35,012 bases of DNA from Gammaproteobacteria bacterium (GTDB taxonomy: Bacteria; Pseudomonadota; Gammaproteobacteria; Natronospirales; JASFQN01), in contig JASFQN010000003.1 in assembly GCA_050115425.1 (NCBI GenBank), forward strand, positions 1-35,012, read 5' to 3'. Shown piece by piece: positions 3,819-32,623 of this stretch. The first letter of the stretch is position 1. Every line of letters starts with the position of its first letter. The notes beneath the pieces are model-generated. The model ran no database searches, had not been told where the DNA came from, and saw nothing but the letters and a program-made list of their open reading frames with translations. Position numbers and translations under genes: made by a program.

Positions 3819-3832
3819 TTGATCTGCATCAA
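3819..3832. promoter_or_regulatory. FNR/CRP-family (FNR/Anr/Dnr-type) binding site between divergent mtrC and diheme cytochrome genes
   Basis: TTGAT-CTGC-ATCAA is a perfect FNR consensus. A -10-like TACCTT at 3856-3861 starts about 30 nt from the box centre, as expected for a class II promoter on the + strand. Confidence 0.85.
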
Positions 3833-3949
3833 CTCCGCCGGACCTTGTAATGAGCTACCTTTTGCACTGAAGATCCTCTCAGGAGGCAGGGAAGAACGAA
3901 CAAGCCTCACGGGAGCGGCAACAAGGACCATCAAGCGCGGGAGACAACC

Positions 3950-4567
3950 ATGTTCAAATCGACTCTTAGTACCCTGGCGGCCGTGGCACTGCTCGCCTTC
4001 GCCGGCTCGGCCATGGCGGGAGATGTGCCCGACGCAGCCAAGACCTGCTTCGACTGTCACGGCGAAAGCGGCGTAAGCAAGCACGAACACATCCCCACCA
4101 TCGCCGGCATGTCTTCCTGGTATCTCGAGGGCCAGATGCAGGCCTACCAGAAGGGCGACCGGCCCTGTGAGAAGATCAAGAACCCCACCGACGCTTCCAA
4201 GGGCGAAGAGGACATGTGCGATATCGCCAAGAAGCTGAGCGGTGACGAGATCACCAAGGTGGCGGAATATTTCGCCGGAGAGACGTTCGTACCCGCCAAG
4301 CAGACCTTCGATGCCGACAAGGCGGCGCTGGGCAAGAAGGTTCATGAACTGGAATGCGAGAAATGCCATTCCGAGGGCGGCTCCTACGCGGACGACGACG
4401 CCGGTATCCTCGCGGGCCAGTGGATCCCCTACCTGAGGCTCACCTTCAAGGAGTACGAAAGCGGCAAGCGCGTGATGCCCGAAAAGATGAAGCCCAAGAT
4501 GGACCAGCTCACCCCGGAACAGACCGAGGCGCTCATCCAGTACTACGCCAGCGAAGGCGCCAAGTAA
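3950..4567 (+). CDS. Periplasmic diheme cytochrome c (c4/FccA/PdsA-like shuttle)
   Basis: Sec signal ending AMA. Two CxxCH motifs (CFDCH, CEKCH), each followed by a c4-like PxIAG/ILAGQ..YL motif and a distal Met. RBS GGGAG. Confidence 0.88.
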   Translation: MFKSTLSTLAAVALLAFAGSAMAGDVPDAAKTCFDCHGESGVSKHEHIPTIAGMSSWYLEGQMQAYQKGDRPCEKIKNPTDASKGEEDMCDIAKKLSGDEITKVAEYFAGETFVPAKQTFDADKAALGKKVHELECEKCHSEGGSYADDDAGILAGQWIPYLRLTFKEYESGKRVMPEKMKPKMDQLTPEQTEALIQYYASEGAK

Positions 4568-4580
4568 CAGGGAGCCAACC

Positions 4581-5192
4581 ATGTCCGACGACAAGCCTGA
4601 CGGCAACAACAACAGCCAGCCGGGGCTCTGGTCACGCATCTGGCGCCAGCCGCGCCGGCGCTGGCTGCTGGGCATCCCGCTCGGCGGTCTGCTTGCCTTT
4701 CTCGTAGGCATCATGTTCTGGGGCGGTTTCAACACCGCCCTTGAACATACCGAGAGCCTGGCATTCTGTACGTCCTGCCATGACATGCAGGTGCCGTTCG
4801 AGGAGTACAAGCAGAGCATCCATTACACCAACGAAGCCGGCGTGCGTGCCGTGTGCAGCGATTGCCACGTGCCGGAAGGCACCTTCGCCCGCATCTGGCG
4901 CCATGTGAAGGCCAGCAAGGAAGTATGGAGCCATTTCACCGGCAAGATCGGCACGCCCGAGAAATACGAGAAGCACCGTGCGGAAATGGCGGCCAAGGTG
5001 GAGGCGGAAATGCGTGCAGACAATTCCGCCGGCTGTCGAAAATGCCACAGCTGGGATGCCATGAAACTCTCTGAACAGGGTCACCAGGCGGCCAAGAAGC
5101 ATTCGCCCGCGTGGCGCGAACGAACCGGCGATACGTGCATCGACTGTCACAAGGACGTCGCGCACCATTTGCCGAAGCCATCGGAACTCTGA
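4581..5192 (+). CDS. NapC/NirT-family tetraheme quinol dehydrogenase (CymA-like)
   Basis: One N-terminal TM helix (GIMFWGGFNTALEHT) and four CxxCH motifs (CTSCHDM, CSDCHVP, CRKCH, CIDCH). The first has the CxxCHxM NapC/NrfH signature. Confidence 0.93.
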   Translation: MSDDKPDGNNNSQPGLWSRIWRQPRRRWLLGIPLGGLLAFLVGIMFWGGFNTALEHTESLAFCTSCHDMQVPFEEYKQSIHYTNEAGVRAVCSDCHVPEGTFARIWRHVKASKEVWSHFTGKIGTPEKYEKHRAEMAAKVEAEMRADNSAGCRKCHSWDAMKLSEQGHQAAKKHSPAWRERTGDTCIDCHKDVAHHLPKPSEL

Positions 5193-5227: not shown

Positions 5228-5240
5228 CTCCTTGTCACTG

Positions 5241-5693
5241 ATGCCCCGTTTCCACACCGCCAGAGAACTGCCCTACCCGCCCGAACGGCTCTTTGATCTG
5301 GTGATTGATGTGGAAGGCTATCCCGTTTTCGTCCCCGGCTACCATCGCGCCTGGATACTTGAGCGCGGCGAGGATTTTGTCGACGTCCGCCAGTCGGTTG
5401 GCTTCGACGGCTTGCGCATCGAGTATCGCTCGATCGCACACTTCAGGCGGCCGGACTGGATCACCATCAACAGCGAAGACGCGCCCTTTCGCCGACTTCA
5501 TACCGAGTGGCGCTTCATCCCGCACCAGGGTGGCTGTCGCGTGGACTGCTCAGTGGACTGGCAATTTCGCAGCATCGCGCTCGGGATGGTGGCCGGCCCC
5601 ATACTGGCCGGCATCTCGAGACGCATGGTCGAAGCATTTGTCACGCGGGCCGCCGCAGCCGATCAGGACCGCCCGCCCCCCGCTAGCCGATGA
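5241..5693 (+). CDS. Coq10/RatA (PasT)-family START-domain protein, putative quinone-binding
   Basis: LPYPPERLFDLVIDVEGYPVFVPG, PFRRLHTEWRF and MVEAFVTRA match the Coq10/RatA pattern. Start taken at ATG 5241 (the ORF track starts at TTG 5232). Confidence 0.85.
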   Translation: MPRFHTARELPYPPERLFDLVIDVEGYPVFVPGYHRAWILERGEDFVDVRQSVGFDGLRIEYRSIAHFRRPDWITINSEDAPFRRLHTEWRFIPHQGGCRVDCSVDWQFRSIALGMVAGPILAGISRRMVEAFVTRAAAADQDRPPPASR

Positions 5694-6591
5694 GAATACC
5701 CAATGCCGTCAACACCAGCGTTGCCATGATCACGCCCACATTCACGCCCATCCATGGCACCAGCCGATCCAGGTCGTCGGCATACCGGATCACGGACCGG
5801 GCCAGCACCACGGCAAGCGGTAGTGGCGCGAGTCCGATCAACGCCCATATCGGAAACAGCCCCGCCACCACGCCACCGATCAGCGTCAGGTAAGCCGCGA
5901 GGAGAAAGCCGGCGAATATCCATGCGCTGGGCTGTCGCCCCAGCACGATGGGCAAATGCCGCCGACCGGCTTCCCGGTCGGGCTCAACGTCGGGAAACTG
6001 ATTGAGCAGCAGCAGCTCGCCGACCAGGAAGAACGGCATCAACGACACCACGAAGGCGGCCCACGTGTAGGTTCCTGTCAGAGCAAAGCCGGTCCCCATG
6101 ACCATCAGCGGGCCGAAGCCGAGACCCGGCGCAAGAAGGCACAATAACGGATGGCGGGTAATCCACACGGTGTACACGGCCACCACGAGCAGGCCGACCA
6201 GGCCCAGGGGTAACAGCGCCAGGCCGCGCTCCGACAGAAAGTAGACGCCCACACCCGCTGCCAGGCCGAGGGTCACTATGCCCGCGTTCAAGGTCGCGGT
6301 CGCCGCTTCGGGATGCTCGGGCAACGTACCGCTGCCACCGCTGAAGGGCGTGCGCTTCGCCATGAGATCCAGCCCGCTCCTGAAGTCGCTGTATTCGTTC
6401 AGCAGGTTCACGCTGGCATGCGCGGCAAGCGCGCCGAGCAGGGCGAAAAACGCATCCGCCCAGCGTACCGCGGCACCCCGGTGTACGACGATCGCAAGAG
6501 CCAGGAAGATACAGACCGGCGTCAGAACGAGAAAATTGAGGCGCAGCGCGCCCAACAGATAACGCATGTTTTTCATGCGGTTATGCTCCAT
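5683..6591 (-). CDS. menA: UbiA-superfamily prenyltransferase, MenA-like (DHNA polyprenyltransferase)
   Basis: Multi-TM protein with Asp-rich motifs NEYSDFRSGLD and NQFPDVEPD and RTPFSGGSG. Last gene of the hydrogenase operon. Confidence 0.8.
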   Translation of the reverse strand: MEHNRMKNMRYLLGALRLNFLVLTPVCIFLALAIVVHRGAAVRWADAFFALLGALAAHASVNLLNEYSDFRSGLDLMAKRTPFSGGSGTLPEHPEAATATLNAGIVTLGLAAGVGVYFLSERGLALLPLGLVGLLVVAVYTVWITRHPLLCLLAPGLGFGPLMVMGTGFALTGTYTWAAFVVSLMPFFLVGELLLLNQFPDVEPDREAGRRHLPIVLGRQPSAWIFAGFLLAAYLTLIGGVVAGLFPIWALIGLAPLPLAVVLARSVIRYADDLDRLVPWMGVNVGVIMATLVLTALGILIG

Positions 6592-6604
6592 TTCTCATTC
6601 GATT

Positions 6605-7207
6605 TCAGGAAGAGACGGCGACCGACTCCGTATGTTCCGCGCCTGCGACCCAGCGTTGCGCGGCCCGCGCTACCCGGCGGCCCAGATGCTCGGCCGTGAG
6701 TCGGTCGCTGGCGGGCGGCACGGCCTCCGGCCCCTCGTCGATGTTGGACTGGGCCATGGCGCCCATCCAGCCTCCCAGGCGATTGAGTTCGTCGGCCGTG
6801 GAGTCTCTGGTTTCGTTGCCGCCCAGCAGGCCGAGGCTGATCCAGTGCATCCCGTGCTGAGCCGCGAACGCCACCATGTCCATCAGTGTATTGAGCTTGT
6901 CACCGCTCATGCTGCCGGAGTTCGTGAAGCCCGCGGCGAGCTTGCCATCCCAGGCCTGCTGGAAAAAGCGCTCCGCGGTCGCTTCCATGACTTCCTTCAA
7001 TCCCGCCGAGACACTGCCCATGTAGGTCGGCGCGCCAAAGATGATCGCATCCGACCGGTCCAGCACGTCCCAGTGTCGCTCGATCTCGGCGACCTGGATC
7101 AGATGCACTTCCGTACCGGGGACACTTTTCGCGCCCTTCTCGACCGCTTTTGCCTGTACTTGCGTGTGGCCGAAGCCACTGTGATAAAGAATTGCCACGC
7201 AGGCCAT
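6605..7207 (-). CDS. WrbA-like flavodoxin-fold protein (putative NAD(P)H:quinone oxidoreductase)
   Basis: YHSGFGHT FMN phosphate loop, IIFGAPTYMGSVS, WDGKLAAGFTNSG..SGDKLNTL. Strong RBS GGAGGAGAGG. Confidence 0.85.
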   Translation of the reverse strand: MACVAILYHSGFGHTQVQAKAVEKGAKSVPGTEVHLIQVAEIERHWDVLDRSDAIIFGAPTYMGSVSAGLKEVMEATAERFFQQAWDGKLAAGFTNSGSMSGDKLNTLMDMVAFAAQHGMHWISLGLLGGNETRDSTADELNRLGGWMGAMAQSNIDEGPEAVPPASDRLTAEHLGRRVARAAQRWVAGAEHTESVAVSS

Positions 7208-14035: not shown

Positions 14036-14104
14036 CCCCGAACTCCCTGGTCGATGCATCCATTGACTTCTCTGGAAGTGAACCGCCCGGCGGGCATTTG
14101 CGCC

Positions 14105-14118
14105 ATGACCCAGATCAA
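14105..14118 (-). promoter_or_regulatory. FNR-type box upstream of the hydrogenase operon
   Basis: TTGAT-CTGG-GTCAT on the minus strand, with one perfect half-site. A weak -10-like TTCACT (14082-14077) is at class II spacing. Confidence 0.6.
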
Positions 14119-14169
14119 GTGCCGGCAAGTTGTCGGAACCTCCTTCCCGGCGGCGCGATCGCCACCGCT

Positions 14170-14210
14170 TTGACCTGTGTCAACTGCCCCGGATGCACGG
14201 GTGGTAGTTT
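14170..14210 (+). promoter_or_regulatory. FNR-type box plus extended -10 upstream of hypA
   Basis: Palindromic TTGAC-CTGT-GTCAA (14170-14183). TG-G-TAGTTT at 14202-14210, with the hexamer starting about 29 nt from the box centre. Confidence 0.72.
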
Positions 14211-14245
14211 GACCTTCGGACACGGCATGGATGGCGAGCCCGACG

Positions 14246-14608
14246 ATGCACGAACTGTCGATCTGTCAGGACCTGCTGGAGCAGGTCGACCGCGTTGCCC
14301 ACGAACATGGCGCTCGCCGCGTGGCCCGGATTCATCTCGCCGTGGGCCCGCTTTCCGGTGTCGTGCCGGAGCTTCTCCAACAGGCATTCACCCTGGCCCG
14401 CGCGGGCAGTTCGCACACCGCGTCAGCCGAACTCGAAATAGAAACCGTGCCTGTTCGCGTGCGCTGCCACCGTTGCGGCGCGGAGACCGACGCGCATGTC
14501 AATCGCCTGCTCTGCGGCCAGTGCGGCGACTATCACACCGATCTCGTGAGCGGCGACGAACTGATATTGCAACGCGTGGAACTTGAAGACGCGGCGGCCA
14601 GCGCCTGA
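14246..14608 (+). CDS. hypA: Hydrogenase nickel metallochaperone HypA
   Basis: MHELSIC N-terminus, GPLSGVVPE, CHRC and CGQC zinc motifs, SGDEL. Confidence 0.95.
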   Translation: MHELSICQDLLEQVDRVAHEHGARRVARIHLAVGPLSGVVPELLQQAFTLARAGSSHTASAELEIETVPVRVRCHRCGAETDAHVNRLLCGQCGDYHTDLVSGDELILQRVELEDAAASA

Positions 14609-14638
14609 CCGGTCGCTGAACGTAGGGGAGAATCGATC

Positions 14639-15430
14639 ATGTGTGACACCTGCGGCTGCAACGTCACGCCGGGCAACGAACATCTGGCGAAACAGCTCCA
14701 CGCCGGTGAAAGCAGCGCGGTGGAGGTTCTCTCGGACCTGCTCTCCGCCAACAACCGGCAGGCCGGGCACAACCGTCGGCATTTCGACCGCCACGGCGTC
14801 CTCGCGCTGAATCTCATGTCCTCGCCCGGCGCGGGCAAGACCGCCCTGCTCGAGGCCACCATCGAAGCGCTGGGCGACGAACTGCGCATCGGCGTGATCG
14901 AGGGCGACCTGGAAACCGAAAACGATGCGGCGCGCATCCGTTCATACGGCATTCCGGCGGTTCAGATTTCCACCGGAACGGCCTGCCATCTGGATGCGCA
15001 CATGGTCCACGATGCACTGCACGGCCTGCCCCTCGACTCACTCGACATCGTATTCATCGAGAACGTTGGCAACCTGGTCTGTCCGGCCAGCTTCGACCTG
15101 GGACAACACCGTAACGTCGCCCTGCTCAGCGTGACCGAAGGCGATGACAAGCCGGCCAAGTACCCGGTGATGTTTCGTGCCGCGGACCTGGTGGTCCTGA
15201 GCAAGTCCGACCTGCTCGATGTGCTGGACGATTTCGATCCGGCCGCGGCCGAGCGGTGCCTGCGCAATCTGGGGCGTGACACCGCGATGATCCAGGTCGC
15301 CGCGCGGCGCGTCCGCGCCCTGCAGCCGTGGCTGGACTGGCTGCGACGTGAGGTTGCGGCGCACCGTTCCGGGCCGGCGCATTTCCATCCGGCGGACGCC
15401 ACCGGACTTCTCAAACCGGCCGCAGGTTGA
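14639..15430 (+). CDS. hypB: Hydrogenase nickel-incorporation GTPase HypB
   Basis: MCDTCGC, SSPGAGKT, CHLDA, ENVGNLVCPASFDLG, EGDDKPAKYP. Confidence 0.97.
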   Translation: MCDTCGCNVTPGNEHLAKQLHAGESSAVEVLSDLLSANNRQAGHNRRHFDRHGVLALNLMSSPGAGKTALLEATIEALGDELRIGVIEGDLETENDAARIRSYGIPAVQISTGTACHLDAHMVHDALHGLPLDSLDIVFIENVGNLVCPASFDLGQHRNVALLSVTEGDDKPAKYPVMFRAADLVVLSKSDLLDVLDDFDPAAAERCLRNLGRDTAMIQVAARRVRALQPWLDWLRREVAAHRSGPAHFHPADATGLLKPAAG

Positions 15431-15439
15431 GATGCCGTC

Positions 15440-20847: not shown

Positions 20848-20865
20848 CACCAGGAATACCGCGAC

Positions 20866-21867: not shown

Positions 21868-21923
21868 CCGGAGAACCCAGGCGGCCATCGCCCGGAAAAT
21901 GTCTTCAGGGAGACTGATCGACC

Positions 21924-22817
21924 ATGACCCGCAATGACTTCCTGAGAATCGTCGAGATACGTACCAAGATCGTCAGCGTCTCGTCCTTTCTCATCGGCAC
22001 GGTGTTCGCAGCGGTGAGCGGCGCCGGCTTTTCCTGGTCCCTGGCGCTGGTGATGTTCGCTGCCGTGCTCTGCGTCGACATGGGCACGACCGGGTTCAAC
22101 AGCTATTACGATTTCGTCAACGGCGTGGACCGGCCGGATACGGATATTGAGGGTGACAAGATCCTTTTGCGTGGCGACACACGGCCGGCCGCGGCGCTGG
22201 CCATTTCCGGGGGCTTCTTCCTGGCGGCGGCCGGCCTTGGCCTGGTCATAGGCCTCATGGCCGGCTGGCAGATCATTGTTGTCGGCACGGTCTGCATGGC
22301 GGCCGGCTTCTTCTACAGCGGTGGCCCTTATCCCCTCTCGCGCACACCGTTTGGTGAATTGCTGGCCGGCGGATTTCTCGGCTGGGTGCTGATCGCACTC
22401 TCGTTTGTCGTCCAGACCGGCCGGCTCACCCCGGCAGCGGTCTGGCTGGGACTGCCCTCCACCGCATTGATCGCCTCCATTCTCACAGTGAACAACACCT
22501 GCGACCTTGTGGGGGATCGCCGTGCGGGGCGCTACACGCTGTCCATCGCGCTCGGTGCCCGGCGCTCCGAATGGGTGATTTACGGGCTCGGGGCGCTCGC
22601 TTATGGCCTGGCCTTCGCGCTCATCGGGTCGGGCATTCTGACCTTGCCAGCGGTCATACCACTCGCGCTGGCCGCGCTGGTCTCGGCCAGCGAATACCGC
22701 CGGATGCACGGACGCGGCTTTTCGCCGGCGACGAAAGCCGCCTCCATGGCTTCGATCAGCAAGGTCTTCGTGGCCTTTACCGCTGCCCTGCTCATAGCCC
22801 TCTCAATCAGCGCCTGA
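21924..22817 (+). CDS. Second UbiA-superfamily prenyltransferase, MenA-like
   Basis: Multi-TM protein with NSYYDFVNGVD, YSGGPYPLSRTPFGE and NNTCDLVGDRRAGRYTL. Confidence 0.82.
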   Translation: MTRNDFLRIVEIRTKIVSVSSFLIGTVFAAVSGAGFSWSLALVMFAAVLCVDMGTTGFNSYYDFVNGVDRPDTDIEGDKILLRGDTRPAAALAISGGFFLAAAGLGLVIGLMAGWQIIVVGTVCMAAGFFYSGGPYPLSRTPFGELLAGGFLGWVLIALSFVVQTGRLTPAAVWLGLPSTALIASILTVNNTCDLVGDRRAGRYTLSIALGARRSEWVIYGLGALAYGLAFALIGSGILTLPAVIPLALAALVSASEYRRMHGRGFSPATKAASMASISKVFVAFTAALLIALSISA

Positions 22818-23156
22818 ACCGGCCACGCGGTAGCGCTCAAGCTGGCGGCGCGCACGTTCGGAATGACTGCGCCCCTGGCCCAGGTCTTCGAAAGCCTGCG
22901 TCGCATCGCGGCCGCACCAGGGCAGGATGACATCCACCCCTGCCGGATGGCGCGCCAGGTAGTCGGTGATGTCGTAATCGACGCCGTGCACGCGAATCCA
23001 GCAATCATGCAGGCCGGCATGCCGAGCCAGATCACCCGATACAGCGGCCGGCCCGGCGGAGGGTGCCGTCGGTCCGGGCGCCAGCCGGGCGACAATCCAG
23101 AGCGTGGCGACCACCGACCAGAACACGATCACGCTGACGAATGCGGTCTTTCTCAC
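22803..23156 (-). CDS. Membrane-anchored cytochrome b5-like heme-binding protein
   Basis: N-terminal TM segment, then DCWIRVHGVDYDITDYLARHPAG and GRDATQAF...HS (b5 HPGG-like and second His ligands). GTG start overlaps the upstream stop. Confidence 0.85.
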   Translation of the reverse strand: MRKTAFVSVIVFWSVVATLWIVARLAPGPTAPSAGPAAVSGDLARHAGLHDCWIRVHGVDYDITDYLARHPAGVDVILPWCGRDATQAFEDLGQGRSHSERARRQLERYRVAGSGAD

Positions 23157-24475
23157 AGGAAATCGAATGCCTCGCAGTGAATGAGTTCGGACGGCACGCC
23201 CTCGTCGCGCAGGACCTGGCGCACCAGGTCCACCAGCCCGGGTGGCCCGCAGACATAGGCTTCAGACTCGCCGACCACGGGACTGGCACGCCGGATGAAG
23301 TCCGCCGAGAGATTGCCCTCGTGAACAAGAAAATGCGGAACCACGCCAAGCCCCCTGATCCGGGTCGCCAGCGCTTCCAGTTCGGCCAGGTAATAGGCAC
23401 GTGTGCGGTCATTCGTGCAATAGATCAGGCGCGCGTCGCAGGAAGTCTGGGCGGCGGCAAGACCGCGCACGCGGCTGACAAAAGGCGCGATACCGATGCC
23501 CCCGGCGATCCACAGTTCCGCCCGTTCCGGCGCCAGCCGTTCGAAAAAATCGCCATAGGGGCCGTCCACCCAGACCGGCGCCCCGCCCGGCAGTGTCTGC
23601 ATCGCAGCGGTGGCATCCCCCAGGTTCTTGACCGCCACGCGCAGCAAACGCTCGTCGGGCGCCGAGGACAGCGTAAACGGGTGCTCTTCGTTACGCGCCG
23701 CCCCCATGCAGGGGTGATCGATGCTCAGATAGATGAACTGACCGGGCCGGAACGCGCGAAAGGCGGGTACGGCGAGTGAAATCTCCACCACCCGGTCGGC
23801 CAGTTCCGTGACCGCGGCGACACTGCCGCGGGCCCCACCGAGCCAGGGACCCAGCGCCTTGCGCCAGAGGATGGCGCCCATTGCGGCCACCCCGAGCACG
23901 CCGAACAGCCAGCGTTCCCAGAGCGGTACCGCCGACAGGGCGAAGACATGCGCCAGGCCGGCAAGCACGGCCAGCGCCGACAACAGATGGATCCGCTTCC
24001 AGCGCGCGTAGGGCGGCCGGCCGAAGAAGCGGAAACTGGGCGCCAGAAACACCAGCATGGCGAGCAAGCCCAGCCAGCCCAGCCACACGGCGGCATCGGC
24101 CGGCGGCGGGAAAAGAACCTCCGAGGCTCCCGGCAATGACTCCGGAATCGCCGCGAAAGCCAGCAGCAGCGGATGGGCCAGAACCGCGAGCAACGCCACG
24201 AAGCCCAGCCAGTGATGCAATCTGAACAGACGCGGCAGCCCGCCGAAGCCGCGGTCGCTGCCCGGCACACGCAGACTGAGCGCGGCACCGCCGAGCAGCG
24301 TGAGCGCGGCAAGCAGGCCGCTCACCCGGCCGGCCGTGCGCAACATGCCCGCCGCCCCGGCGCCCGCTCCGGGCCAATGCCAGGCGAGCCCGGTGGCCGC
24401 CAGGGCGACGGTCGCCGCAACCACGGCCACGGCCGCCCAGCGTTTGCGCACAACACTCACTCGCATGAAATCCAT
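23153..24475 (-). CDS. Ferric-reductase/NOX-like transmembrane flavocytochrome b (TM heme, FAD and NAD(P)H domains)
   Basis: TM His pairs HHWLG...LAHP and IHLLS...LAHV, PGQFIYL, EEHPFTLSSAP, VDGPYG, IAGGIGIAPF, YVCGPPG, and C-terminal EAFDF. Confidence 0.88.
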   Translation of the reverse strand: MDFMRVSVVRKRWAAVAVVAATVALAATGLAWHWPGAGAGAAGMLRTAGRVSGLLAALTLLGGAALSLRVPGSDRGFGGLPRLFRLHHWLGFVALLAVLAHPLLLAFAAIPESLPGASEVLFPPPADAAVWLGWLGLLAMLVFLAPSFRFFGRPPYARWKRIHLLSALAVLAGLAHVFALSAVPLWERWLFGVLGVAAMGAILWRKALGPWLGGARGSVAAVTELADRVVEISLAVPAFRAFRPGQFIYLSIDHPCMGAARNEEHPFTLSSAPDERLLRVAVKNLGDATAAMQTLPGGAPVWVDGPYGDFFERLAPERAELWIAGGIGIAPFVSRVRGLAAAQTSCDARLIYCTNDRTRAYYLAELEALATRIRGLGVVPHFLVHEGNLSADFIRRASPVVGESEAYVCGPPGLVDLVRQVLRDEGVPSELIHCEAFDFL

Positions 24476-24517
24476 TCCCGCAGACGCCTCCCGTCCATGC
24501 CAGCATGCGCCGTTACA

Positions 24518-25156
24518 TCATTCGCCACCAGTCCGATCCTCGTCCCTGCCGCCGAACAGAAGCCCGCGCACCATTTCCTCCTGGTCGAGTTCCTCCAGGG
24601 CGGCCTCCATGCGACGTTGGTCGGCGCGGATCTCGGGCAGGATCAGATTCTCGAGCGAGCGAACCCGCCGTTCCGTAAGCCGGTATTCGGCATGCAGCCG
24701 CAGGATGTTGGCCAGTTCCACCGCCATGGGCACGGCCTGGTCCAGCAGGCCGGAAAACGCTCCGGCCACCGCTTCGGCTTGCGCCGAGCGCAGCACCGCC
24801 GGTTCCACCGTCCCGGCGACCGGCCCGCGTACCGGCATCCGCCCCGACAACAGCTTCACGCCAAGAAACGATCCCTCGTCCAGCATCAGCCGCTCGTCCA
24901 CCGGCACCGCGGCCGCCGGGTACACCTGCAGGCCTTCCAGCCCGTGATGCGCCAGGCCCGCCGCCATGCGGCCGGCCGCCGATTCCAGGCTGGCTTCGAA
25001 GGCATTCACCATGGCCTGATAGTCCGCCAGGCGACGCAACAATTCCCTGGCCACCAGCATGCGTTTTTCATCCAGAAAGCGGTGGCCTTCCTCGAACACG
25101 CTGCGGTCGCGGCGAAGTTCAAGCAGGGCGGCTCGCGATGCGACACGCTCAGCCAT
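24518..25156 (-). CDS. ntpD: V/A-type ATPase subunit D
   Basis: Start MAERVASRAALLEL. GHRFLDEKR and TERRVRSLENLILP..LEELDQEE. Confidence 0.92.
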   Translation of the reverse strand: MAERVASRAALLELRRDRSVFEEGHRFLDEKRMLVARELLRRLADYQAMVNAFEASLESAAGRMAAGLAHHGLEGLQVYPAAAVPVDERLMLDEGSFLGVKLLSGRMPVRGPVAGTVEPAVLRSAQAEAVAGAFSGLLDQAVPMAVELANILRLHAEYRLTERRVRSLENLILPEIRADQRRMEAALEELDQEEMVRGLLFGGRDEDRTGGE

Positions 25157-26543
25157 CGGTCGCGCCCGACGCAGCGAGATGCCGCGCAATCTGCTCGTCG
25201 CTCAAACGGCTCAGCTCCCCGGCGGGCAGCATGGCAAGCAGATTCCAGCCGATGTCGAGGCTTTCCTCAAGCACGCGTGCTCCCTCCTGGTGGACGAAGT
25301 CGCGTTCAAAGGCGTTGCCAAAATCCAGATAGAGGCGGTCGCCCGCCGGCAGGCCTTCCTCGCCGACCACCTTGGCCAGCGTGCGTATCTGATTGGCCCG
25401 GGCATAGGCCGCATAGAGCTGGCTGGCCAGCGCCGGGTGGTCGGCATCGGTATAACCCTCGCCAATACCCTGGTCGATCAGCCGCGAGAGACTCGGCAGC
25501 ACCGAGACCGGCGGGTAATAGCCGCGACGGTCCAGTTCGCGGTCGAGCACGATCTGGCCTTCGGTAATGTAACCGGTCAGGTCGGGAATCGGATGGCTGA
25601 TGTCGTCTCCCGGCATGGTGAGTACCGGAAGCTGGGTGAGCGTGCCTTCACTGCCGCGGAGGCGGCCGGCCCGTTCGAACAGGGTCGCCAGATCCGAGTA
25701 CATGTAGCCGGGATAGCCCTTGCGCCCGGGCACTTCGCCGTGGCTCGCCGAGACCTCGCGCAGGGCCTCGCAGTAATTGGTCATGTCGGTCATCACGACC
25801 AGCACGTGGCGGTGCTCGCCAAAGGCGAGGTATTCGGCGGCAGTCAGCGCGTACCGGGGAGTCAGCAGACGCTGAGTGCTGGAATCGCTGGCCAGATTGA
25901 GAAACAGCGCGGTGTGCTCCAGCGCCCCGCTCTCCTCCATGGCACGGCGAAACGCCTCCGCGGTCGTGTGCGACACACCGATGCCCGCAAACACTATGGC
26001 GAATCCACCCGCCTCGTCGCCCAGCAGGCGGGCATGGCGCGTGATATCCACAGCCATGCGGGCGTGGGGCAGCCCGCCGCCGGAAAAGATCGGCAGCTTC
26101 TGTCCGCGCACCAGGCTGTTGAGCACGTCGATGCTGCTGATGCCGGTCTCGATGAAAGCCGTGGGCAGATCCCGAGCCACAGGATTGAGTGGCCACCCGC
26201 CCACCGGACGTTCTTGATGAATCGGAACCGGTGGGCCGCCGTCCAGCGGGCGTCCCACACCGTCAAAGACGCGTCCGAGCAGACCGGGCCCCACACCGAA
26301 GTGCAACGATTCACCGGAAAAGCGCACCCCTGTGCCCGCAAGCCCGAGATTGGCGGTGGGTTCGAGCACTTCGACAACCATGCGTCGTTCGTCCAGTGCG
26401 GCCACGCGCCCGGGACGCGCGGCGCCGTCCGCGCCGATCACTTCCACGGCTTCGTTGAGACCCACCGACAGGACCCGCTCCAGGAACAGCAACGGCCCCT
26501 CGATGCGCGTCGCGGCCCGCTCGGCCAGCATCTCAATCGCCAT
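25149..26543 (-). CDS. ntpB: V/A-type ATPase subunit B
   Basis: Start MAIEML at 26543. ETGISSID, RGQKLPIFSG, DMTNYCEALREVS, GYPGYMYSDLA, HPIPDLTGYITEGQI, SLSRL. Confidence 0.96.
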   Translation of the reverse strand: MAIEMLAERAATRIEGPLLFLERVLSVGLNEAVEVIGADGAARPGRVAALDERRMVVEVLEPTANLGLAGTGVRFSGESLHFGVGPGLLGRVFDGVGRPLDGGPPVPIHQERPVGGWPLNPVARDLPTAFIETGISSIDVLNSLVRGQKLPIFSGGGLPHARMAVDITRHARLLGDEAGGFAIVFAGIGVSHTTAEAFRRAMEESGALEHTALFLNLASDSSTQRLLTPRYALTAAEYLAFGEHRHVLVVMTDMTNYCEALREVSASHGEVPGRKGYPGYMYSDLATLFERAGRLRGSEGTLTQLPVLTMPGDDISHPIPDLTGYITEGQIVLDRELDRRGYYPPVSVLPSLSRLIDQGIGEGYTDADHPALASQLYAAYARANQIRTLAKVVGEEGLPAGDRLYLDFGNAFERDFVHQEGARVLEESLDIGWNLLAMLPAGELSRLSDEQIARHLAASGATDG

Positions 26544-28308
26544 CGCCCGAAGCCTCCTGCGTGACGGCTGTTCCGCCCGATTCCAGTGCGGTGTCCATTT
26601 CCCCGCGCAACGCGGCGAAGCGGTCCAGATGGTCTTCGCCGATCTCCTCGCCCATGCGCCGCAGGCGGCGCAAGAGCGGCAGTGATGCAATATCGGCAAC
26701 AGCCATCCCGCCGGCCAGCGCGGCCTCGGCACTGTCCATGAAATGCACGAGGGTGCGCATCATCTCGATCTGGCGATCCGGGGATGTATAGCAGTCCACT
26801 GGCGAAAATGCCGACTGCCGCAGGAAGGCCTCATTGAGCAAGTCAGCGAACAACAGTGTGAGTTGCTGGCGGGCCGGCAGGGCGTCGCGACCAACGATGC
26901 GCACCATGCGCTCCAGATGCGCCTGCTCTTCCAGCAGCGCCAGGAAACGATGCCGCTGTTCCTGCCGGTCCGCGTGGCCGTGGGCGCGCCACCAGCCTGC
27001 CAGGTCGGGGGCGTCCTCCGAATAGGCGCCCAGGGGATTGATCGCGGGATAGAAACGCGCGCGTGCCCGGTCACGGTCGAGCGGCCAGAAACAACGTACA
27101 TTGCGTTGGGTATGCAACGTGACCGGCTCGGAGAAATCACCGCCCGGCGGGCTCACGGCACCGATCAGCGTCACCGAGCCCTCTTCCCCGGACAGGGTCC
27201 GGACCCGCGCGGCCCGTTCATAGAATTCCGCCTTGCGTGTGCCGAGATAGGCCGGGTACCCGCCTTCCGCGGGCAACTCGCCCAGGCGACCGCCTATCTC
27301 GCGCAACGCTTCCGCCCAGCGACTGGTGGAATCCGCCATCAGCGCGACATGCAGCCCCTGGTCCCGGAAGTACTCGGCGACCGTGACGCCGGTATAGATG
27401 CTCGCCTCCCGGGCCGCCACCGGCATGTTGGAGGTATTGGCAATAATCACCGAGCGTTCGATCAGCGGCCGTCCGGTGCGTGGGTCCTCAAGGGACGGAA
27501 AGTCATGCAGGACTTCGGTCATCTCGTTGCCGCGCTCTCCACAGCCCACATAGACGATCACATCGGCGTCGCACCACTTGGCGATGCTCTGCTGGAGAAT
27601 GGTCTTGCCGGTGCCGAAGCCACCCGGCATGGCGGCACGACCGCCGCGCGCGACCGGAAACAGCGCATCGATGATTCGCTGGCCCGTCAGAAGCGGCGCA
27701 TCCGGCGGCAGACGCTCGGCGACCGGACGCGGCATGCGCACCGGCCAGCGCTGCCGCAGGCTGACAGCGGTCGGCTCGCCCTCGCCGGTGTCCACACGGC
27801 AAATCACTGCATCGGCGGCATAGCGCCCCGGCGGCACGATGTCCACGACCCGGCCGGCCAGACCTGGCGGCACCAGGCAAAGCTGGTCGCGTCCACCCTC
27901 ACCCGGGAGGATGCGCCCGAGCACTTCGCCGCCGGTCACGGCGCGGCCGGTTTCAAGCAGCGGCTCGCAATCGAACTCGGCCGCGCGTGAGGGCTGCATT
28001 CCCACCTGCACGTGGAGGTTCTCGGCAGACAGGGGCCGCAAGAGTCCGTCGAAGATGCCACCAAGCAGCCCGGGATCGAGCGGTACCGACAAGGCTCGGC
28101 CGGTGCCCGCAACCGGATCGCCGAATCGCAGGCCCGTGGTGTCTTCATAAACCTGGACGGTGATCGTCTTGCCCGCCACACGGAGAACTTCGCCAAGCAG
28201 GCGCTGCTCGCCTACGTGCACTTCCTCGCTGACGCGGAAAGACTGCTCGCTGATCGCGGTCAGCACGGGGCCACCGATCGAGGTGATGCTTGCGCGCGCG
28301 CCGCTCAT
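26533..28308 (-). CDS. ntpA: V/A-type ATPase catalytic subunit A
   Basis: QVYEDT, Walker A GGFGTGKT, GCGERGNEM, NTSNMPVAAREAS, DSTSRWAEALRE, SPPGGDFSEPVT. Confidence 0.97.
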   Translation of the reverse strand: MSGARASITSIGGPVLTAISEQSFRVSEEVHVGEQRLLGEVLRVAGKTITVQVYEDTTGLRFGDPVAGTGRALSVPLDPGLLGGIFDGLLRPLSAENLHVQVGMQPSRAAEFDCEPLLETGRAVTGGEVLGRILPGEGGRDQLCLVPPGLAGRVVDIVPPGRYAADAVICRVDTGEGEPTAVSLRQRWPVRMPRPVAERLPPDAPLLTGQRIIDALFPVARGGRAAMPGGFGTGKTILQQSIAKWCDADVIVYVGCGERGNEMTEVLHDFPSLEDPRTGRPLIERSVIIANTSNMPVAAREASIYTGVTVAEYFRDQGLHVALMADSTSRWAEALREIGGRLGELPAEGGYPAYLGTRKAEFYERAARVRTLSGEEGSVTLIGAVSPPGGDFSEPVTLHTQRNVRCFWPLDRDRARARFYPAINPLGAYSEDAPDLAGWWRAHGHADRQEQRHRFLALLEEQAHLERMVRIVGRDALPARQQLTLLFADLLNEAFLRQSAFSPVDCYTSPDRQIEMMRTLVHFMDSAEAALAGGMAVADIASLPLLRRLRRMGEEIGEDHLDRFAALRGEMDTALESGGTAVTQEASGDGD

Positions 28309-28973
28309 TGCGCTTCCCCTGCCGCGCGCTGCCCGGGCGCGGTGCGCAGGCGCTGCTCGATGCGCCCCAGCAGCAGGCCCTTGAGATGCTGCTCACGCCC
28401 CATGAGTGCCGCCACGCTCGCATCGAGGCAGGCCTTGCCTGCACGCAAGCGGTACCCGGCCTGCAAATCCGTCAACGCACGCATGGTCAGCGTGACATCC
28501 GGCCGCTGTTCGGCGACCGATTCAGGCACCGACCAGTGGTGCTCCGGCTGCGCGTCTTCGGGATGTTCCAATACCCAGTCGCCATCGGGGAGTCGGTCAA
28601 CAGCCAGGCGAAGCAGGCCATCGAGCCATTGGCGGCGCGCCGCCCCATCACGCCAGCGCCGTGCCAGTTCCTTGTCGAGTTGCTGCCAGGCGCGCTCCAG
28701 GTAGTTCAACTGCAATTCCTGCCGACGGTGACGCAGGGCGGCCTCGGCCGTGGCCCGCGCATGCGCCAGTTCCCGGGCTCGATGGGCGCGCTGCTCACGC
28801 ACTGTCTGTCGAATACGCGCATGCGCCCGGCGGCGCGCCTCGGCCAGCATGCGCGCGCGTTCTCCTTCGGCTTCCTCGAGCAGACCGGTGCGCCTTTCCC
28901 GCCGCACCCGCCCGATATGCTCAAGCAGTGCCTCAGTGGCATTATCGGCGACGGGTGCCTCGGGCCGGGTCAT
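28305..28973 (-). CDS. ntpE: V/A-type ATPase subunit E (peripheral stalk)
   Basis: Coiled-coil N-half with a C-terminal LQAGYRL..CLDAS motif. Positioned between F and A. Confidence 0.75.
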   Translation of the reverse strand: MTRPEAPVADNATEALLEHIGRVRRERRTGLLEEAEGERARMLAEARRRAHARIRQTVREQRAHRARELAHARATAEAALRHRRQELQLNYLERAWQQLDKELARRWRDGAARRQWLDGLLRLAVDRLPDGDWVLEHPEDAQPEHHWSVPESVAEQRPDVTLTMRALTDLQAGYRLRAGKACLDASVAALMGREQHLKGLLLGRIEQRLRTAPGQRAAGEAQ

Positions 28974-29269
28974 TGGGCCACTCCCAGATCCTGGCGAATG
29001 CGCCGCACCTCATCGGCGGCCCGCACGTCGCCGGCGAGTCCGGTCATCACCAGGATCGGTGGTCGCGCCGCCAGTTGGCGGCGATACAGAAAAGCCGGCG
29101 TCACCGCCTGCGCGCAATCCGCGCCAAGCAGGATGACGGAAGGCGGGTCAGCGAGGACTTCCCGAAGCACGGTCTCGGCAACGGCGGGGGCAGCTATCCG
29201 CACCGCAACGCCGGCGAGGCGGAATCCCGTGGCGGTCAACTCGTCACCGATGAACAGCGGACCGTCCAT
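28970..29269 (-). CDS. ntpF: V/A-type ATPase subunit F
   Basis: IGDELTATGFRLAGV and C-terminal IRQDLG; 99 aa. Confidence 0.9.
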   Translation of the reverse strand: MDGPLFIGDELTATGFRLAGVAVRIAAPAVAETVLREVLADPPSVILLGADCAQAVTPAFLYRRQLAARPPILVMTGLAGDVRAADEVRRIRQDLGVAQ

Positions 29270-29270
29270 G

Positions 29271-29627
29271 TCAGCCCAACCGGTCCAGGATGAGGATGGA
29301 CACGATCAAACCGTAGATGGCGATGCCTTCCGCCAGGCCAACCAGTACCAGGACGCGGCCGAGCAGTTCCGGACGCTCGGCCAACGCGCCCATGCCGGCG
29401 CTGCCGACCATCGCCACCGCATATCCCGCAGCCAGCGCGGATACCCCGGTGGACGCGGCGGCCGCCGCAAAACCCCATTTCATGACCACCGGATCGACAA
29501 CGGCCCCTGCCGCGGGCGCGGCGGCGAAAGCTTCGGGCAGCCATAGCACGACGCTGGCCAGCGCCACGAGCAGGCTTGTCGCAAGGATGGCGAAAAGCGT
29601 GATTTTCAGATGCTGTGCCGGTTGCAT
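29271..29627 (-). CDS. ntpK: V/A-type ATPase proteolipid subunit K/c
   Basis: Start MQPAQH at 29627 with GGAGGGAG RBS. Hairpin GALAERPELLG..GLAEGIAIYGL carries the ion-binding Glu. Confidence 0.93.
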   Translation of the reverse strand: MQPAQHLKITLFAILATSLLVALASVVLWLPEAFAAAPAAGAVVDPVVMKWGFAAAAASTGVSALAAGYAVAMVGSAGMGALAERPELLGRVLVLVGLAEGIAIYGLIVSILILDRLG

Positions 29628-29652
29628 GGAAGCTCCCTCCTCGACCGGTGGT

Positions 29653-31479
29653 TCAATGGGCAAACGGCGGAGGTGACGGCTGGAACGGACGCCCCTCCGC
29701 ACGCAGGAATCGGATGAAGAATTCGAACAGGATCAAACGCGTGGTCTGGACGAAGACCACCAGACCTTCCAGGAACAGGACACCCAGGTTGCCGACAATC
29801 AGCACCAGGAGCATGCCTGCGGGATGCTCTATCGAGCGCGCCAGGCTGACCACGGCGAGTGAGAGCCCCGCATGGGCCAGCGCGAATGCGCCCACACGAA
29901 TGAAGGAAAGCGTGTTGACGGCCAGTTGCAGAAGCCGTTCGAGTATTTCGCCCATGCTTCCCAGCACCACGGCGATTCCGTGGTGCCGGTGTTCCCAGGC
30001 GCAACCGCCCAGGTACCACAAAAGCCCGGCCGCCACGGTCCAGAGACCCGGGACCAGCCGCCATACCGCCAGCATCCCACCTGCGTAGAGCGTTACCAGG
30101 CCAGCTTCGATCCGCCACCACGTGCCGCCCTGCCCGCCCCAGCGCGCCGCCAGTCCGTTGAGCAGCAAGCCAAACAGGATCAGGACCGCACCGCCGGCGA
30201 TGGGTACGAACAGTACCGGCAGGGGCTGCGTGACCGGATGGACCCACAGCGCGGGAATGATGTCTTCGAGGCAGAAGACACTGCCGAAGAGCACGCCGAA
30301 CAGAATGGCCATGAGGCCGCCCGGAATGAGCATGCCCAGCGCCGGCCAGCGGCGCCAGAGAAACAGGCCGGCGACAAGCAGCACCGCGCCCTGACCAACG
30401 TCGCCGAACATGTAACCAAACAGCAAGGGGCCGATCACGGCCAGGAGCCGGCTGGGATCGGCCTCATTGCCCCCTGGCGTGCCCATCAGACGCACGAACA
30501 GCTCGAAAGGCCGCGCCCAGGGCGGATTGTCGCTCAGTGTGGGCGGCACCCGGTCCGCCGGCGGCGCGGGAAAGCCGACCACCGCGGGAATGCCCGCTGC
30601 CTTGAGGGTACCCAGCAGGCGCCTGCCGGACGGATCCGAAGTCCAGCCATCCAGGCGCGCCAGGTAGTCACTGACCGCCGCGCCTTCGAGATGCTCGAGA
30701 CGCCATTGCAGCCGTCGCACCCGGCCAAGTGCCTCGGCAATGCCGAAGCGTTCGCCCAATTCCACCAGCGCCGCGTCGATTTCCGCCAACCTTCGAGCCG
30801 CCGACTCGCGGCGCTCCTCGACCGCACGCAGCGCCTGCAGAGGCGGGCCCGCCAGCCATTCGGGCAGCGCGATTCGGCGCGATCCGTGGCCGCCGGCCCC
30901 CTGGCCGAATTCCGCTACTGCCGTGTCGCGCCCGAGGACCAGCAGCCAGGTGTGCTCGGCGGTATCCACCCGCCGACGGATCACTGCGTCCGCGGGCATG
31001 GGCACATGCGCCTCCGCCGGCAGCATGAACAGCGCCGCCGCCAGTGGCGGACGGGTTCGCACAACGCGTCCGAAATCCGGCTCGGGCGAATCACCCAATG
31101 CTTCGAGAAAGCGTGCCAGTGGCGCCAGTTCCTCACGTCGCATTTCGAGCGCGGCGGCTTCTTCGATCAGAGGTGCGGCCTCGCGCTCCCAGTCCCGCAG
31201 CGGCTGGAGGACTTCGACCAGCGCTTCGTCCAGGGCCTTCCCCTCATCGGACGGCGCCACTTCGCGTGGACGGGGCCAGGCATTTCCGCAGCGCTCACGG
31301 ATTTCGGCGAATTCGTCGAGTCCGTTGCGAATCGCACTCAGATCCAGGGCCCGCTCCACCGCGCTGCCAGGCTCAAGTTCCACGAGCCCGGTATCGGCCA
31401 GCAGTTCCGCCGCGCGTCCGGCCTTGGGCGCGGGAACCAGCACCTCGAACCAGCGCGCGCTGCGGGTACGCAGGGCCAT
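29653..31479 (-). CDS. ntpI: V/A-type ATPase subunit I/a
   Basis: Start MALRTRSARWF overlaps the subunit C stop. PPTL..PFE..EADP, FGYMFGDVGQG, NTLSFIRVGAFALAH (essential Arg), RLILFEFF. Confidence 0.94.
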   Translation of the reverse strand: MALRTRSARWFEVLVPAPKAGRAAELLADTGLVELEPGSAVERALDLSAIRNGLDEFAEIRERCGNAWPRPREVAPSDEGKALDEALVEVLQPLRDWEREAAPLIEEAAALEMRREELAPLARFLEALGDSPEPDFGRVVRTRPPLAAALFMLPAEAHVPMPADAVIRRRVDTAEHTWLLVLGRDTAVAEFGQGAGGHGSRRIALPEWLAGPPLQALRAVEERRESAARRLAEIDAALVELGERFGIAEALGRVRRLQWRLEHLEGAAVSDYLARLDGWTSDPSGRRLLGTLKAAGIPAVVGFPAPPADRVPPTLSDNPPWARPFELFVRLMGTPGGNEADPSRLLAVIGPLLFGYMFGDVGQGAVLLVAGLFLWRRWPALGMLIPGGLMAILFGVLFGSVFCLEDIIPALWVHPVTQPLPVLFVPIAGGAVLILFGLLLNGLAARWGGQGGTWWRIEAGLVTLYAGGMLAVWRLVPGLWTVAAGLLWYLGGCAWEHRHHGIAVVLGSMGEILERLLQLAVNTLSFIRVGAFALAHAGLSLAVVSLARSIEHPAGMLLVLIVGNLGVLFLEGLVVFVQTTRLILFEFFIRFLRAEGRPFQPSPPPFAH

Positions 31480-32201
31480 CACACGTCCCCACTCCGACCC
31501 GGCAGCAGACGGCGTTGCACCAGCAGCCCGCGCAAGTGTGCGTGGTCCAGCCAGGCGAGGCCGATGAAGGCAATCACCGCTGCCGGCCCGGGTGCCTGAC
31601 GACGGAAGACATGTCCCCACCGCGCGGCCAGCACAAGCTCTGGCTCGTCACCGGCGACTGCGCCGGCGCCGGCGCCGAGCCGGCGATATTGGGCAAGCGC
31701 GTGCTGTTCGAGCAAGGTGAGTTGAGCGTGCCAGCGATTTGGCATCGCCGGCCATTGCGCATGCCAGCGACGACGCCAGGCCTCGACCACGGCTGCGCCG
31801 CGCAGGTCACGGGCCAGCCAGGACGGCGGCTTTTCGCTTCCCGCCGCATCGGTGAGCCATGCCGGCGCGGTCGCATCGGCTGCCAGCGCCTGCAGTGCGG
31901 GCAGTTCGGGGAGGCGGGCCAGCCAGGTCACCGCAGGGCGCCACTCGCGGGGCAGCCAGCGGGCAATCTCGGTGATCAGTTGGCGGAAATGTTCCCGGAC
32001 CAGCGACTCCACAGTGTGGGCATCGTCACGCCCCGACAGCCGCCCCGCCAACCGGCCGAATGCGGTATCCCGCAATGACTGGATGAGCGCGGCAAGGGAA
32101 TCCGTCGCGGCCAGGCGCTCCCAGGCAGAGCCGGGCCTCTGGCTGTAGCGTGCCTGCAGGCGGGCCTGGGCGTAGGCGAAACCGGCCAGCGGCGTGTTCA
32201 C
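31479..32201 (-). CDS. ntpC: V/A-type ATPase subunit C/d (short, divergent)
   Basis: FAYAQARLQAR N-terminal motif and LRDTAF. Lies directly upstream of subunit I. Confidence 0.7.
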   Translation of the reverse strand: MNTPLAGFAYAQARLQARYSQRPGSAWERLAATDSLAALIQSLRDTAFGRLAGRLSGRDDAHTVESLVREHFRQLITEIARWLPREWRPAVTWLARLPELPALQALAADATAPAWLTDAAGSEKPPSWLARDLRGAAVVEAWRRRWHAQWPAMPNRWHAQLTLLEQHALAQYRRLGAGAGAVAGDEPELVLAARWGHVFRRQAPGPAAVIAFIGLAWLDHAHLRGLLVQRRLLPGRSGDV

Positions 32202-32551
32202 GGCCGGCCGTCCCGGGTACCACCGGTCAGGACAAGCGCCAGATCCGCGGCGGCCGTCGAGGCCGCTTCCTCATCGAAAGGCACATCCTGAAGGGATCGA
32301 AGACGCTGCTCGCCTGTGCGCAGAATAGCTTCCACCTGCCGGGCCGTCTGTCGCCGAGCTCCTTCCTCGACGCGCGCGGCGCGCGCCTCGCCCCGGGCGA
32401 GCATCCCGTGGACTTCGCTACGGGCCCTGGCAACCAGATCGCGCGCCTCTTCCATGGCAGCCGCAACATCAGCCTCGGCGGCAGCCTCCGCCTCGAGGAT
32501 GCGGACGATGGCTTCGCTGGCTTCGAATCCTCCGGTGTCCGCGCCACGCAT
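32198..32551 (-). CDS. V/A-type ATPase subunit G/H-like peripheral stalk protein
   Basis: Start MRGADTGG at 32551 with GGGAGGG RBS. Ala/Glu/Arg coiled coil (RILEAEAAAEADV..EEAR). First gene of the operon. Confidence 0.7.
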   Translation of the reverse strand: MRGADTGGFEASEAIVRILEAEAAAEADVAAAMEEARDLVARARSEVHGMLARGEARAARVEEGARRQTARQVEAILRTGEQRLRSLQDVPFDEEAASTAAADLALVLTGGTRDGRP

Positions 32552-32582
32552 GCTGACCCTCCCTGGGTATGGGCCTCTGCCG

Positions 32583-32623
32583 AGCGTAACGGACACCGCA
32601 AGGGGCCCGTTGACTTGCATCAA
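32583..32623 (-). promoter_or_regulatory. FNR-type box and -10 upstream of the V-ATPase operon
   Basis: TTGAC-TTGC-ATCAA at 32610-32623 (one mismatch to consensus). A -10-like TACGCT on the minus strand at 32588-32583 starts about 29 nt from the box centre. Confidence 0.75.

Follow-up and report, generated by a model that had tools for sequence, protein, structure and literature searches.

Do the operons for a NiFe hydrogenase, its maturation proteins, multiheme cytochromes and a V/A-type ATPase, side by side on one piece of DNA, answer to a single regulator of anaerobic life, and do shared regulator sites make them a functional unit? The question arose for the whole of contig C3 (35,012 bases (b), hereafter the window) of G000, the genome of an uncultured wetland gammaproteobacterium (2.6 Mb in 271 contigs, 91% complete, 63.6% G+C). 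G000 is the sole member of its family among the genomes compared, and its closest kin belong to the same order. An initial annotation had placed all five operons of the window in one putative anoxia regulon on the strength of four boxes resembling TTGAT-N4-ATCAA, the site of the regulator FNR. By the motif, promoter and conservation evidence presented here, an FNR/ANR-type regulon is real and covers three, probably four, of the five operons.

Four boxes in three divergent intergenic regions

The window has three divergent intergenic regions (3641–3949, 14036–14230 and 32552–32720). The four 14-mers of the initial annotation were found by exact match where it had placed them, each inside one of these regions, and the TAnnnT hexamers that it had claimed for three of the boxes were all present (TACCTT, TAGTTT and TACGCT). 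In the following list, mismatches are counted against TTGAT-N4-ATCAA, and distances, in nucleotides (nt), run from the box centre.

3819–3832, box 1, TTGATCTGCATCAA, 0 mismatches, matrix score 19.7
3856–3861, plus strand, TACCTT, putative −10 hexamer for box 1, beginning at 30.5 nt; transcription predicted to start at about 3867–3868
14105–14118, box 2, ATGACCCAGATCAA (read toward hynD: TTGATCTGGGTCAT), 2 mismatches, matrix score 13.6
14170–14183, box 3, TTGACCTGTGTCAA, 2 mismatches, matrix score 20.7
14205–14210, plus strand, TAGTTT, putative −10 hexamer for box 3, beginning at 28.5 nt; transcription predicted to start at about 14218
32610–32623, box 4, TTGACTTGCATCAA, 1 mismatch, matrix score 21.2
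32588–32583, minus strand, TACGCT, putative −10 hexamer for box 4, beginning at 28.5 nt; transcription predicted to start at about 32575

Box 1 is one of just two perfect TTGAT-N4-ATCAA sites in the whole genome. Its centre (3825.5) lies 124.5 nt 5' of the ATG of a cytochrome c gene (3950) and 185.5 nt from that of mtrC (3640). The centre of box 3 (14176.5) lies 54.5 nt 5' of the ATG at 14231 and 69.5 nt 5' of the conserved MHELS start of hypA (14246), and that of box 4 (32616.5) lies 65.5 nt 5' of the first V/A-ATPase gene (ATG 32551, minus strand) and 104.5 nt 5' of an MFS gene (32721, plus strand). In the opposite directions the canonical arrangement of box and hexamer was absent: it was not found for box 3 toward hynD, no TAnnnT stood at the canonical distance from box 4 toward the MFS gene, and the only one from box 1 toward mtrC was at 24.5 nt. 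A scan of the three regions with the sigma-70 consensus returned no stand-alone sigma-70-like promoter, a result that is compatible with activator dependence without being evidence for it.

How many such boxes are to be expected by chance depended strongly on how they were counted. The window contains 11 matches with at most two mismatches, against a shuffle mean of 5.37, and none of 100 shuffles reached 11. The genome, however, contains 801 such matches in 2,600,855 b, or 10.8 per 35,012 b. Because this rate equals the count in the window, raw mismatch counting is uninformative, and we rejected it as a significance test. Five of the matches in the window (5457, 11603, 11639, 20072 and 29723) were discarded, all being intragenic and of low matrix score (8.0 and 7.4 for the first two, below the threshold of 6 for the others); further matches lie at 2508 and 8488.

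The palindromic core TTGA-N6-TCAA behaved differently. We counted 37 copies in 304,562 b of intergenic DNA versus 14 in 2,296,293 b of coding DNA, an approximately 20-fold difference per kb. This division is based on 2441 genes (88% coding) predicted from codon usage, with the Pfam-verified genes of the window as training set. Forty-seven palindromes matched to the core in layout and base composition served as controls; their intergenic hits averaged 2.26, with 9 at most, so that roughly nine in ten of the intergenic core boxes exceed expectation. The boxes at 3819, 14170 and 32610 carry the core and are three of these 37 sites. With a weight matrix trained on the 34 core sites outside the window, 31 matches in the genome scored at least 18, and 31 of 31 were intergenic. 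Such a scan against the genome background was the check that the initial annotation had put forward; it sustained these three boxes (19.7–21.2) but not the one at 14105 (13.6).

In class II activation the activator site is centred at −41.5 and the −10 hexamer occupies −12 to −7. We surveyed every intergenic core box with a correctly oriented gene 45–250 nt away, which amounted to 39 site-directions. TAnnnT began 28.5 (7 cases), 29.5 (9) or 30.5 nt (2) from the box centre in 18 of the 39, or in 15 of 34 when the rows from the window were removed, whereas every other offset between 0 and 70 nt was seen zero to two times. The boxes at 3819, 14170 and 32610 fit both the core and this spacing, and for these three the proposed class II geometry holds as a prediction from sequence.

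Conservation at orthologous loci had been set beforehand as a test by which the proposal could fall. Orthologs of the cytochrome c (49–65% identity) were found in seven genomes of the order; all seven loci kept the box, some 60–120 nt 5' of the estimated ATG and with the full core in six, the box of G007, TTGACCTGCATCAG, having one mismatch. A TAnnnT stood 28.5–30.5 nt from this box in all seven. For the ATPase, a 240-aa subunit served as query, and the operon was found in two of the 65 other genomes of the order (G017 and G060). At the position of box 4 these read TTGATCCATGTCAT and TTGATCCAAGTCAT, i.e. TTGATCCA(T/A)GTCAT, at the same distance to the first gene, and both loci had TAnnnT at 28.5 nt. 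For the hydrogenase region, a query with the HynD protease yielded 29 loci from named public genomes, of which 17 were proteobacterial (42–57% identity); these and three further loci formed a set of 20. They came from metagenome-assembled genomes labelled Wenzhouxiangella and Wenzhouxiangellaceae, from other Gammaproteobacteria, and from Gallionella, Thiobacillaceae, Burkholderiales and Alphaproteobacteria. In 10 of the 20, hypBA is divergent from hynD-hupH-hynS as in the window, and boxes facing hypA and boxes facing hynD are present in most of these 10. Boxes facing hypA with TAnnnT at 28.5–30.5 nt were seen in L026, L027, L028, L063 and L066. Conservation was thus found at the cytochrome c, V-ATPase and hypA/hynD loci. 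The genome tallies include the unpublished genomes G038, G063, G044, G031, G064 and G065, on which no claim rests.

One might still ask whether all four boxes match by chance, in intergenic DNA that is somewhat richer in AT, and are devoid of any regulatory role. The agreement of the window count with the genome rate would suit this view, as would, for the box at 14105, a class of one-mismatch sites that is not enriched over controls. It is hard to reconcile with the 37 intergenic cores where 2.26 were expected, with the sharp peak of −10 spacing and with positional conservation in relatives of other families. We consider it very improbable for the set as a whole and tenable for the box at 14105 only; those at 3819, 14170 and 32610 are very probably real sites.

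Candidate regulators and the wider regulon

The genome encodes three clear proteins of the CRP/FNR family, on contigs C172, C126 and C108. The first of them (C172, 3094–3849) is a four-cysteine FNR, a regulator that matches the boxes: it has a C-X2-C-X5-C motif, a central fourth Cys and an E--SR recognition helix (ETVSR). It aligned with FNR of Aliivibrio fischeri (5cvr; E value 1.5e-43) over a range spanning the Cys motif, the fourth Cys and ETVSR (ETISR in 5cvr), and its best NCBIfam family was the Fnr subfamily (NF008365, 170.4 bits). On the same contig a box at 2416 lies 154.5 nt 5' of a gene for a 125-aa receiver-domain-like protein (2577–2954; assigned from a reading of the N-terminus only), which is itself upstream of the fnr candidate. 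Because the box precedes this upstream gene, autoregulation of the fnr candidate is suggested.

We think it likely that the boxes at 3819, 14170 and 32610 are sites of an FNR/ANR-type activator of the CRP/FNR family in class II position, with the C172 protein as the favored candidate. Each of the three boxes, its centre about 41.5 nt upstream of where transcription begins, would stand in for a −35 element. At low oxygen, FNR carrying a [4Fe-4S] cluster would dimerize, bind the box and recruit RNA polymerase to the cytochrome c/cymA operon (start at about 3867, plus strand), the hyp operon (about 14218, plus strand) and the V/A-ATPase operon (about 32575, minus strand). Activation would be directional, so that mtrC and the MFS gene are not obviously served. 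The box at 14105 would, by its position, descend from a conserved box that faces hynD and probably confer a weaker FNR-dependent expression of hyn. Genome-wide, the regulon would comprise some 40–55 sites, among them those of high-affinity oxidases, hemN, norB and the genes for molybdenum cofactor and glycogen.

According to Pfam, the genes behind other boxes indeed encode a COX1-family (cbb3-like) oxidase subunit, HemN, CydA, a NorB cytochrome-c-like domain and MoaA, together with a ThiF/rhodanese (ThiF/MoeB-like) protein, an MFS transporter, a ribonucleotide reductase, an acyl-CoA dehydrogenase, dodecin and DUF2249. GlgC, GlgB, glycogen phosphorylase and class V fructose-bisphosphatase are found there as well. 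The box-linked genes are the classic FNR/ANR set plus carbon-storage genes. On a single 14-kb contig (C57), three boxes (1018, 8127 and 13209) precede glgC, glgB and the genes for glycogen phosphorylase, class V fructose-bisphosphatase and a glucokinase-like protein, the last assigned by its N-terminus only; glycogen turnover seems to be part of the regulon.

In E. coli and Pseudomonas, class II FNR/ANR promoters have TTGAT-N4-ATCAA centred at −41.5. The promoters of G000 resemble these in the inverted repeat, in a −10 element that begins some 29 nt away from the centre of the box and in the lack of a −35 element, and the regulon resembles theirs in its four-Cys E--SR regulator and in targets such as cbb3-type and bd oxidases, hemN, nor and molybdenum cofactor genes. 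There are also differences. The consensus of G000 favors TTGAC over TTGAT, its outermost base is dispensable, and its regulon adds glycogen genes, the V/A-type ATPase and the cytochrome c/CymA operon.

Another member of the family deserves consideration here. The consensus half-site of the cAMP receptor protein (CRP) is GTGA, whereas the three strong boxes have TTGA, and the recognition helix of the C108 protein reads REMAGR, not E--SR. We regard binding of these sites by CRP, as with the anaerobic respiration genes of Shewanella, as almost certainly not the case, even though C108 is a CRP equivalog (341 bits, cut-off 266) and CRP is reported to govern many anaerobic respiratory genes in Shewanella (PMC5432575).

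Weak and missing sites, and a second candidate regulator

Several points have to be set against the assignment of these boxes to FNR. The labels intergenic and coding stem from a crude gene finder, through which the control palindromes were passed as well; TAnnnT is a loose pattern; and the conservation counts, coming from genomes of kindred organisms, lack independence. The 170.4 bits of the C172 protein lie below the NF008365 cut-off of 228. The only RNA evidence consists of the contigs of one wetland metatranscriptome (X11), which are unable to reveal transcription starts. Exact contigs were found there for mtrC (3048–3673), the cytochrome c gene, cymA, isp1/hynS, hynD and hypA/hypB (spans include 4044–4302, 4810–4963 and 14582–14797), which attests their occurrence in an RNA library and nothing more. 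We do not take the end of one contig at 3673 as evidence of a transcription start. Contigs of four public runs revealed no transcript starts, and across the three intergenic regions they held no informative variants.

The ATPase promoter fared less well at greater distance. Among 18 of 29 gammaproteobacterial V-ATPase loci from outside G000 (L110, L114 and L117–L125 were set aside for partial or weaker matches or short upstream DNA), a core box lay upstream in three, and TAnnnT at 27–32 nt in none. Since these distant loci mostly lack the box and none has a canonical −10 element, the link of the ATPase to the regulon appears lineage-specific. In a metagenome scan, the 240-aa subunit matched a single locus, and only weakly (L095, with 37% identity across residues 152–234).

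A further difficulty is the protein encoded on C126 (3139–3849, minus strand), which is FtrB/FixK-like, has an ETLSR helix but no Cys cluster, and could bind the same boxes. The boxes might then be real and yet be read by this Cys-less FtrB/FixK/Dnr-like paralog, with nitric oxide or an upstream two-component cascade as the signal instead of oxygen sensed directly by an iron-sulfur cluster. Its best NCBIfam match was FtrB (99.8 bits), and a box lies 64.5 nt 5' of its own gene; norB and the DUF2249 gene carry boxes too. At position 5 of the half-site, C (38 of 68 half-sites) is preferred over T (23), and a C at this position resembles FixK/Dnr-type sites. The presence of the four-Cys FNR speaks for the other paralog, as do targets that include the standard direct FNR/ANR set of high-affinity oxidases and hemN, while the three boxes of the window are indistinguishable from the rest of the regulon. 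On balance we infer that the FNR of C172 would be the activator and that oxygen would be its signal; control by the C126 protein appears rather unlikely.

The box at 14105 (centre 14111.5, 76.5 nt 5' of the hynD ATG at 14035) is of a different quality. Its core is broken at the outermost base, reading ATGA...TCAA, and is therefore not a TTGA-N6-TCAA core. It has no TAnnnT, the hexamer at 29.5 nt being TTCACT, and its score bin contains 28 coding and 9 intergenic matches. Sites with one core mismatch numbered 106 in intergenic DNA against a mean of 53.7 in 12 controls (range 16–135), which is not a clear enrichment. With a mixed score bin and an unenriched class, the box cannot be separated from chance by its motif. 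A finer division of that class did contain a signal: a correctly spaced −10 element accompanied 15 of 50 intergenic sites with the mismatch at the outermost base, versus 1 of 56 with an inner mismatch. We rejected the class as a whole as backing for the box at 14105, the signal residing in the outermost-position subclass only; the box has its mismatch at that position, yet it lacks the correctly spaced hexamer.

Its location is more telling. Among the 20 hynD loci, seven have a hynD-facing core box with TAnnnT at 28.5–29.5 nt, and two more have the hexamer at 31.5 nt. Four have no box scoring above 8, and one more has a weak in-gene hit only, its upstream DNA being short; in the remaining loci the box is degenerate or the hexamer misplaced or absent, and the box of L026 faces hypA only. 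Measured from the conserved HynD anchor, the box at 14105 lies at 145.5 nt, and six of the ten divergent loci have a box at 128.5–156.5 nt. Because the anchor distances match, it is the positional counterpart of a conserved site that is weakened here. The box is thus a weak or decayed site whose one support is its conserved position before hynD, and the chances that it is a real site are about even.

For mtrC, G000 has no box of its own. In four of the seven relatives (G057, G060, G017 and G032) a second box faces mtrC with TAnnnT at 29.5 nt, whereas the aligned position in G000 (3757–3770, minus strand) reads CTGATCCAGCCATG and the hexamer is gone. G000 appears to have lost this promoter element, with CTGATCCAGCCATG as its putative decayed remnant, and we consider direct control of mtrC in G000 improbable. 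A terminator-like hairpin on the plus strand at 3640–3663 overlaps the region of the mtrC start codon and is probably a chance hit.

The gene island and its place in the regulon

The genes around the boxes were mapped from Pfam domains and our own gene calls; the entries below are from Pfam, with gene calls added for the hyn operon and the ATPase genes.

280–1278, minus strand, MtrA-like multiheme gene
1361–3640, minus strand, MtrC/OmcA-like decaheme lipoprotein gene (mtrC)
3950–4567, plus strand, diheme cytochrome c gene
4581–5192, plus strand, NapC/NirT (CymA-like) tetraheme cytochrome gene
5232–5693, plus strand, SRPBCC protein gene
14035 down to 5683, minus strand, hyn operon: hynD protease, hupH, hynS, isp1, isp2 (HdrD-like), hynL, nicO, flavodoxin-like, ubiA-like
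14231–22817, plus strand, hyp operon: hypA-hypB-hypC-hypD-hypX-hypF-hypE-ubiA-like
24475–23153, minus strand, ferric-reductase-like membrane flavoprotein gene (Ferric_reduct, FAD_binding_8, NAD_binding_1)
32551 down to 24518, minus strand, V/A-type ATPase genes (whole target operon 23153–32551)
32721–33893, plus strand, MFS gene
CsoR-like gene, given in the map together with the MFS gene

The genes of the hyn operon are all on one strand with gaps of at most 66 nt, and 42 nt past the V-ATPase genes, on their strand, comes the ferric-reductase-like gene. At the ends of the hyn and hyp operons (5683–7207 and 21924–22817) stand two genes for UbiA-family prenyltransferases and one that is flavodoxin/FMN-reductase-like. 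The first of the UbiA genes, in the 5683–7207 region, is syntenic in G017, and these genes may serve a dedicated quinone- or heme-related step. The hyp operon behind its strong box also holds a hypX-type gene (16826–18541) with formyltransferase and enoyl-CoA hydratase domains. HypX being associated with the maturation of hydrogenases in air, it is odd to find its gene in an operon that is apparently induced by anoxia.

With this map at hand, the two broader claims of the initial annotation can be considered. The regulon does take in the cytochrome c/cymA, hyp and V-ATPase operons, which have canonical promoters; hyn has a degenerate box only, and mtrC has none, so that membership of all five operons is doubtful. 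The second claim, that the shared boxes are independent evidence of the island as a functional unit, was not upheld, for the regulon that the motif defines is genome-wide, with 37 or more intergenic sites. That one contig should have three of the 37 is a modest excess (Poisson P 0.014 by length, 0.0011 by intergenic length), calculated post hoc for a window chosen beforehand.

Synteny would be the stronger argument for a unit than the clustering of boxes. In G017, which belongs to another family, one 37-kb stretch holds the whole gene set in the order of the window: V-ATPase genes, nicO, hypE to hypA, hynD to hynL, ubiA, SRPBCC, cymA, cytochrome c, mtrC and the MtrA-like gene, with boxes at all three corresponding promoters. 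The nicO gene of G017 stands outside the hyn operon and has its own box, TTGATCTGGGTCAA, about 190 nt upstream (L092, G017:C1, about 236613). With the proteins of the window as queries, no ferric-reductase-like gene was found beside the V-ATPase genes of G017.

Control of this functional set by an FNR-type regulator is already known from experiment, since deletion of the FNR homolog etrA in Shewanella oneidensis MR-1 lowered the anaerobic transcript ratios of mtrCAB-omcA to 0.22–0.30, of hyaCBA to 0.07–0.11 and of cymA to 0.39 (PMC3078092). In that study no EtrA site was predicted for cymA and none is given for hyaCBA in Table 3, and EtrA is portrayed as a fine-tuner beside CRP (PMC3078092). 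The window shares with the EtrA system the set of mtr, cymA and NiFe hydrogenase and differs from it in that the cymA operon of G000 has a perfect box and mtrC none.

The hydrogenase itself invites comparison with systems closer in gene order. The Isp-type order hynS-isp1-isp2-hynL is present in G000, and its hyn promoter box is degenerate and without TAnnnT, whereas relatives have canonical ones. In Thiocapsa roseopersicina, FnrT reportedly controls the hyn (Isp-type) hydrogenase, and in Rhizobium leguminosarum FnrN is said to control the hyp genes. G000 would share with these systems the hynS-isp1-isp2-hynL order and FNR-type boxes before the hydrogenase and hyp operons. What sets G000 apart is a degenerate box on the hyn side and a strong one on the side of hypA, together with an operon that begins with hynD-hupH and runs divergently from hypA.

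It is conceivable, and we advance it as a tentative idea that we hold less likely than its contrary, that the window represents one copy of an anaerobic energy module, switched by FNR and conserved in an uncultured order of wetland Gammaproteobacteria, into which the V/A-ATPase was newly recruited. If so, the Isp-type hydrogenase would feed the quinone pool, and cytochrome c/CymA together with MtrCAB would export the electrons. The link to the ATPase would then reflect a rewiring specific to the lineage, serving to pump ions or to make ATP during extracellular respiration driven by hydrogen.

In conclusion, this work provides a well-supported in-silico regulon for an uncultured lineage, with four predicted transcription starts, the one for the box at 14105 lying near 14070 on the minus strand. 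Knowledge of FNR is unchanged by it, and the 'island regulon' is a slice of the global anaerobic regulon. FNR-type control in this wetland bacterium would be of an ordinary anaerobic kind, with the V-ATPase as a putative lineage-specific target; hydrogenase maturation, a CymA-type quinol dehydrogenase and a V/A-type ATPase would thereby be linked to low oxygen. The weak hyn site and the lost mtrC site, both kept in relatives, offer a small natural example of promoter turnover within a conserved gene island.

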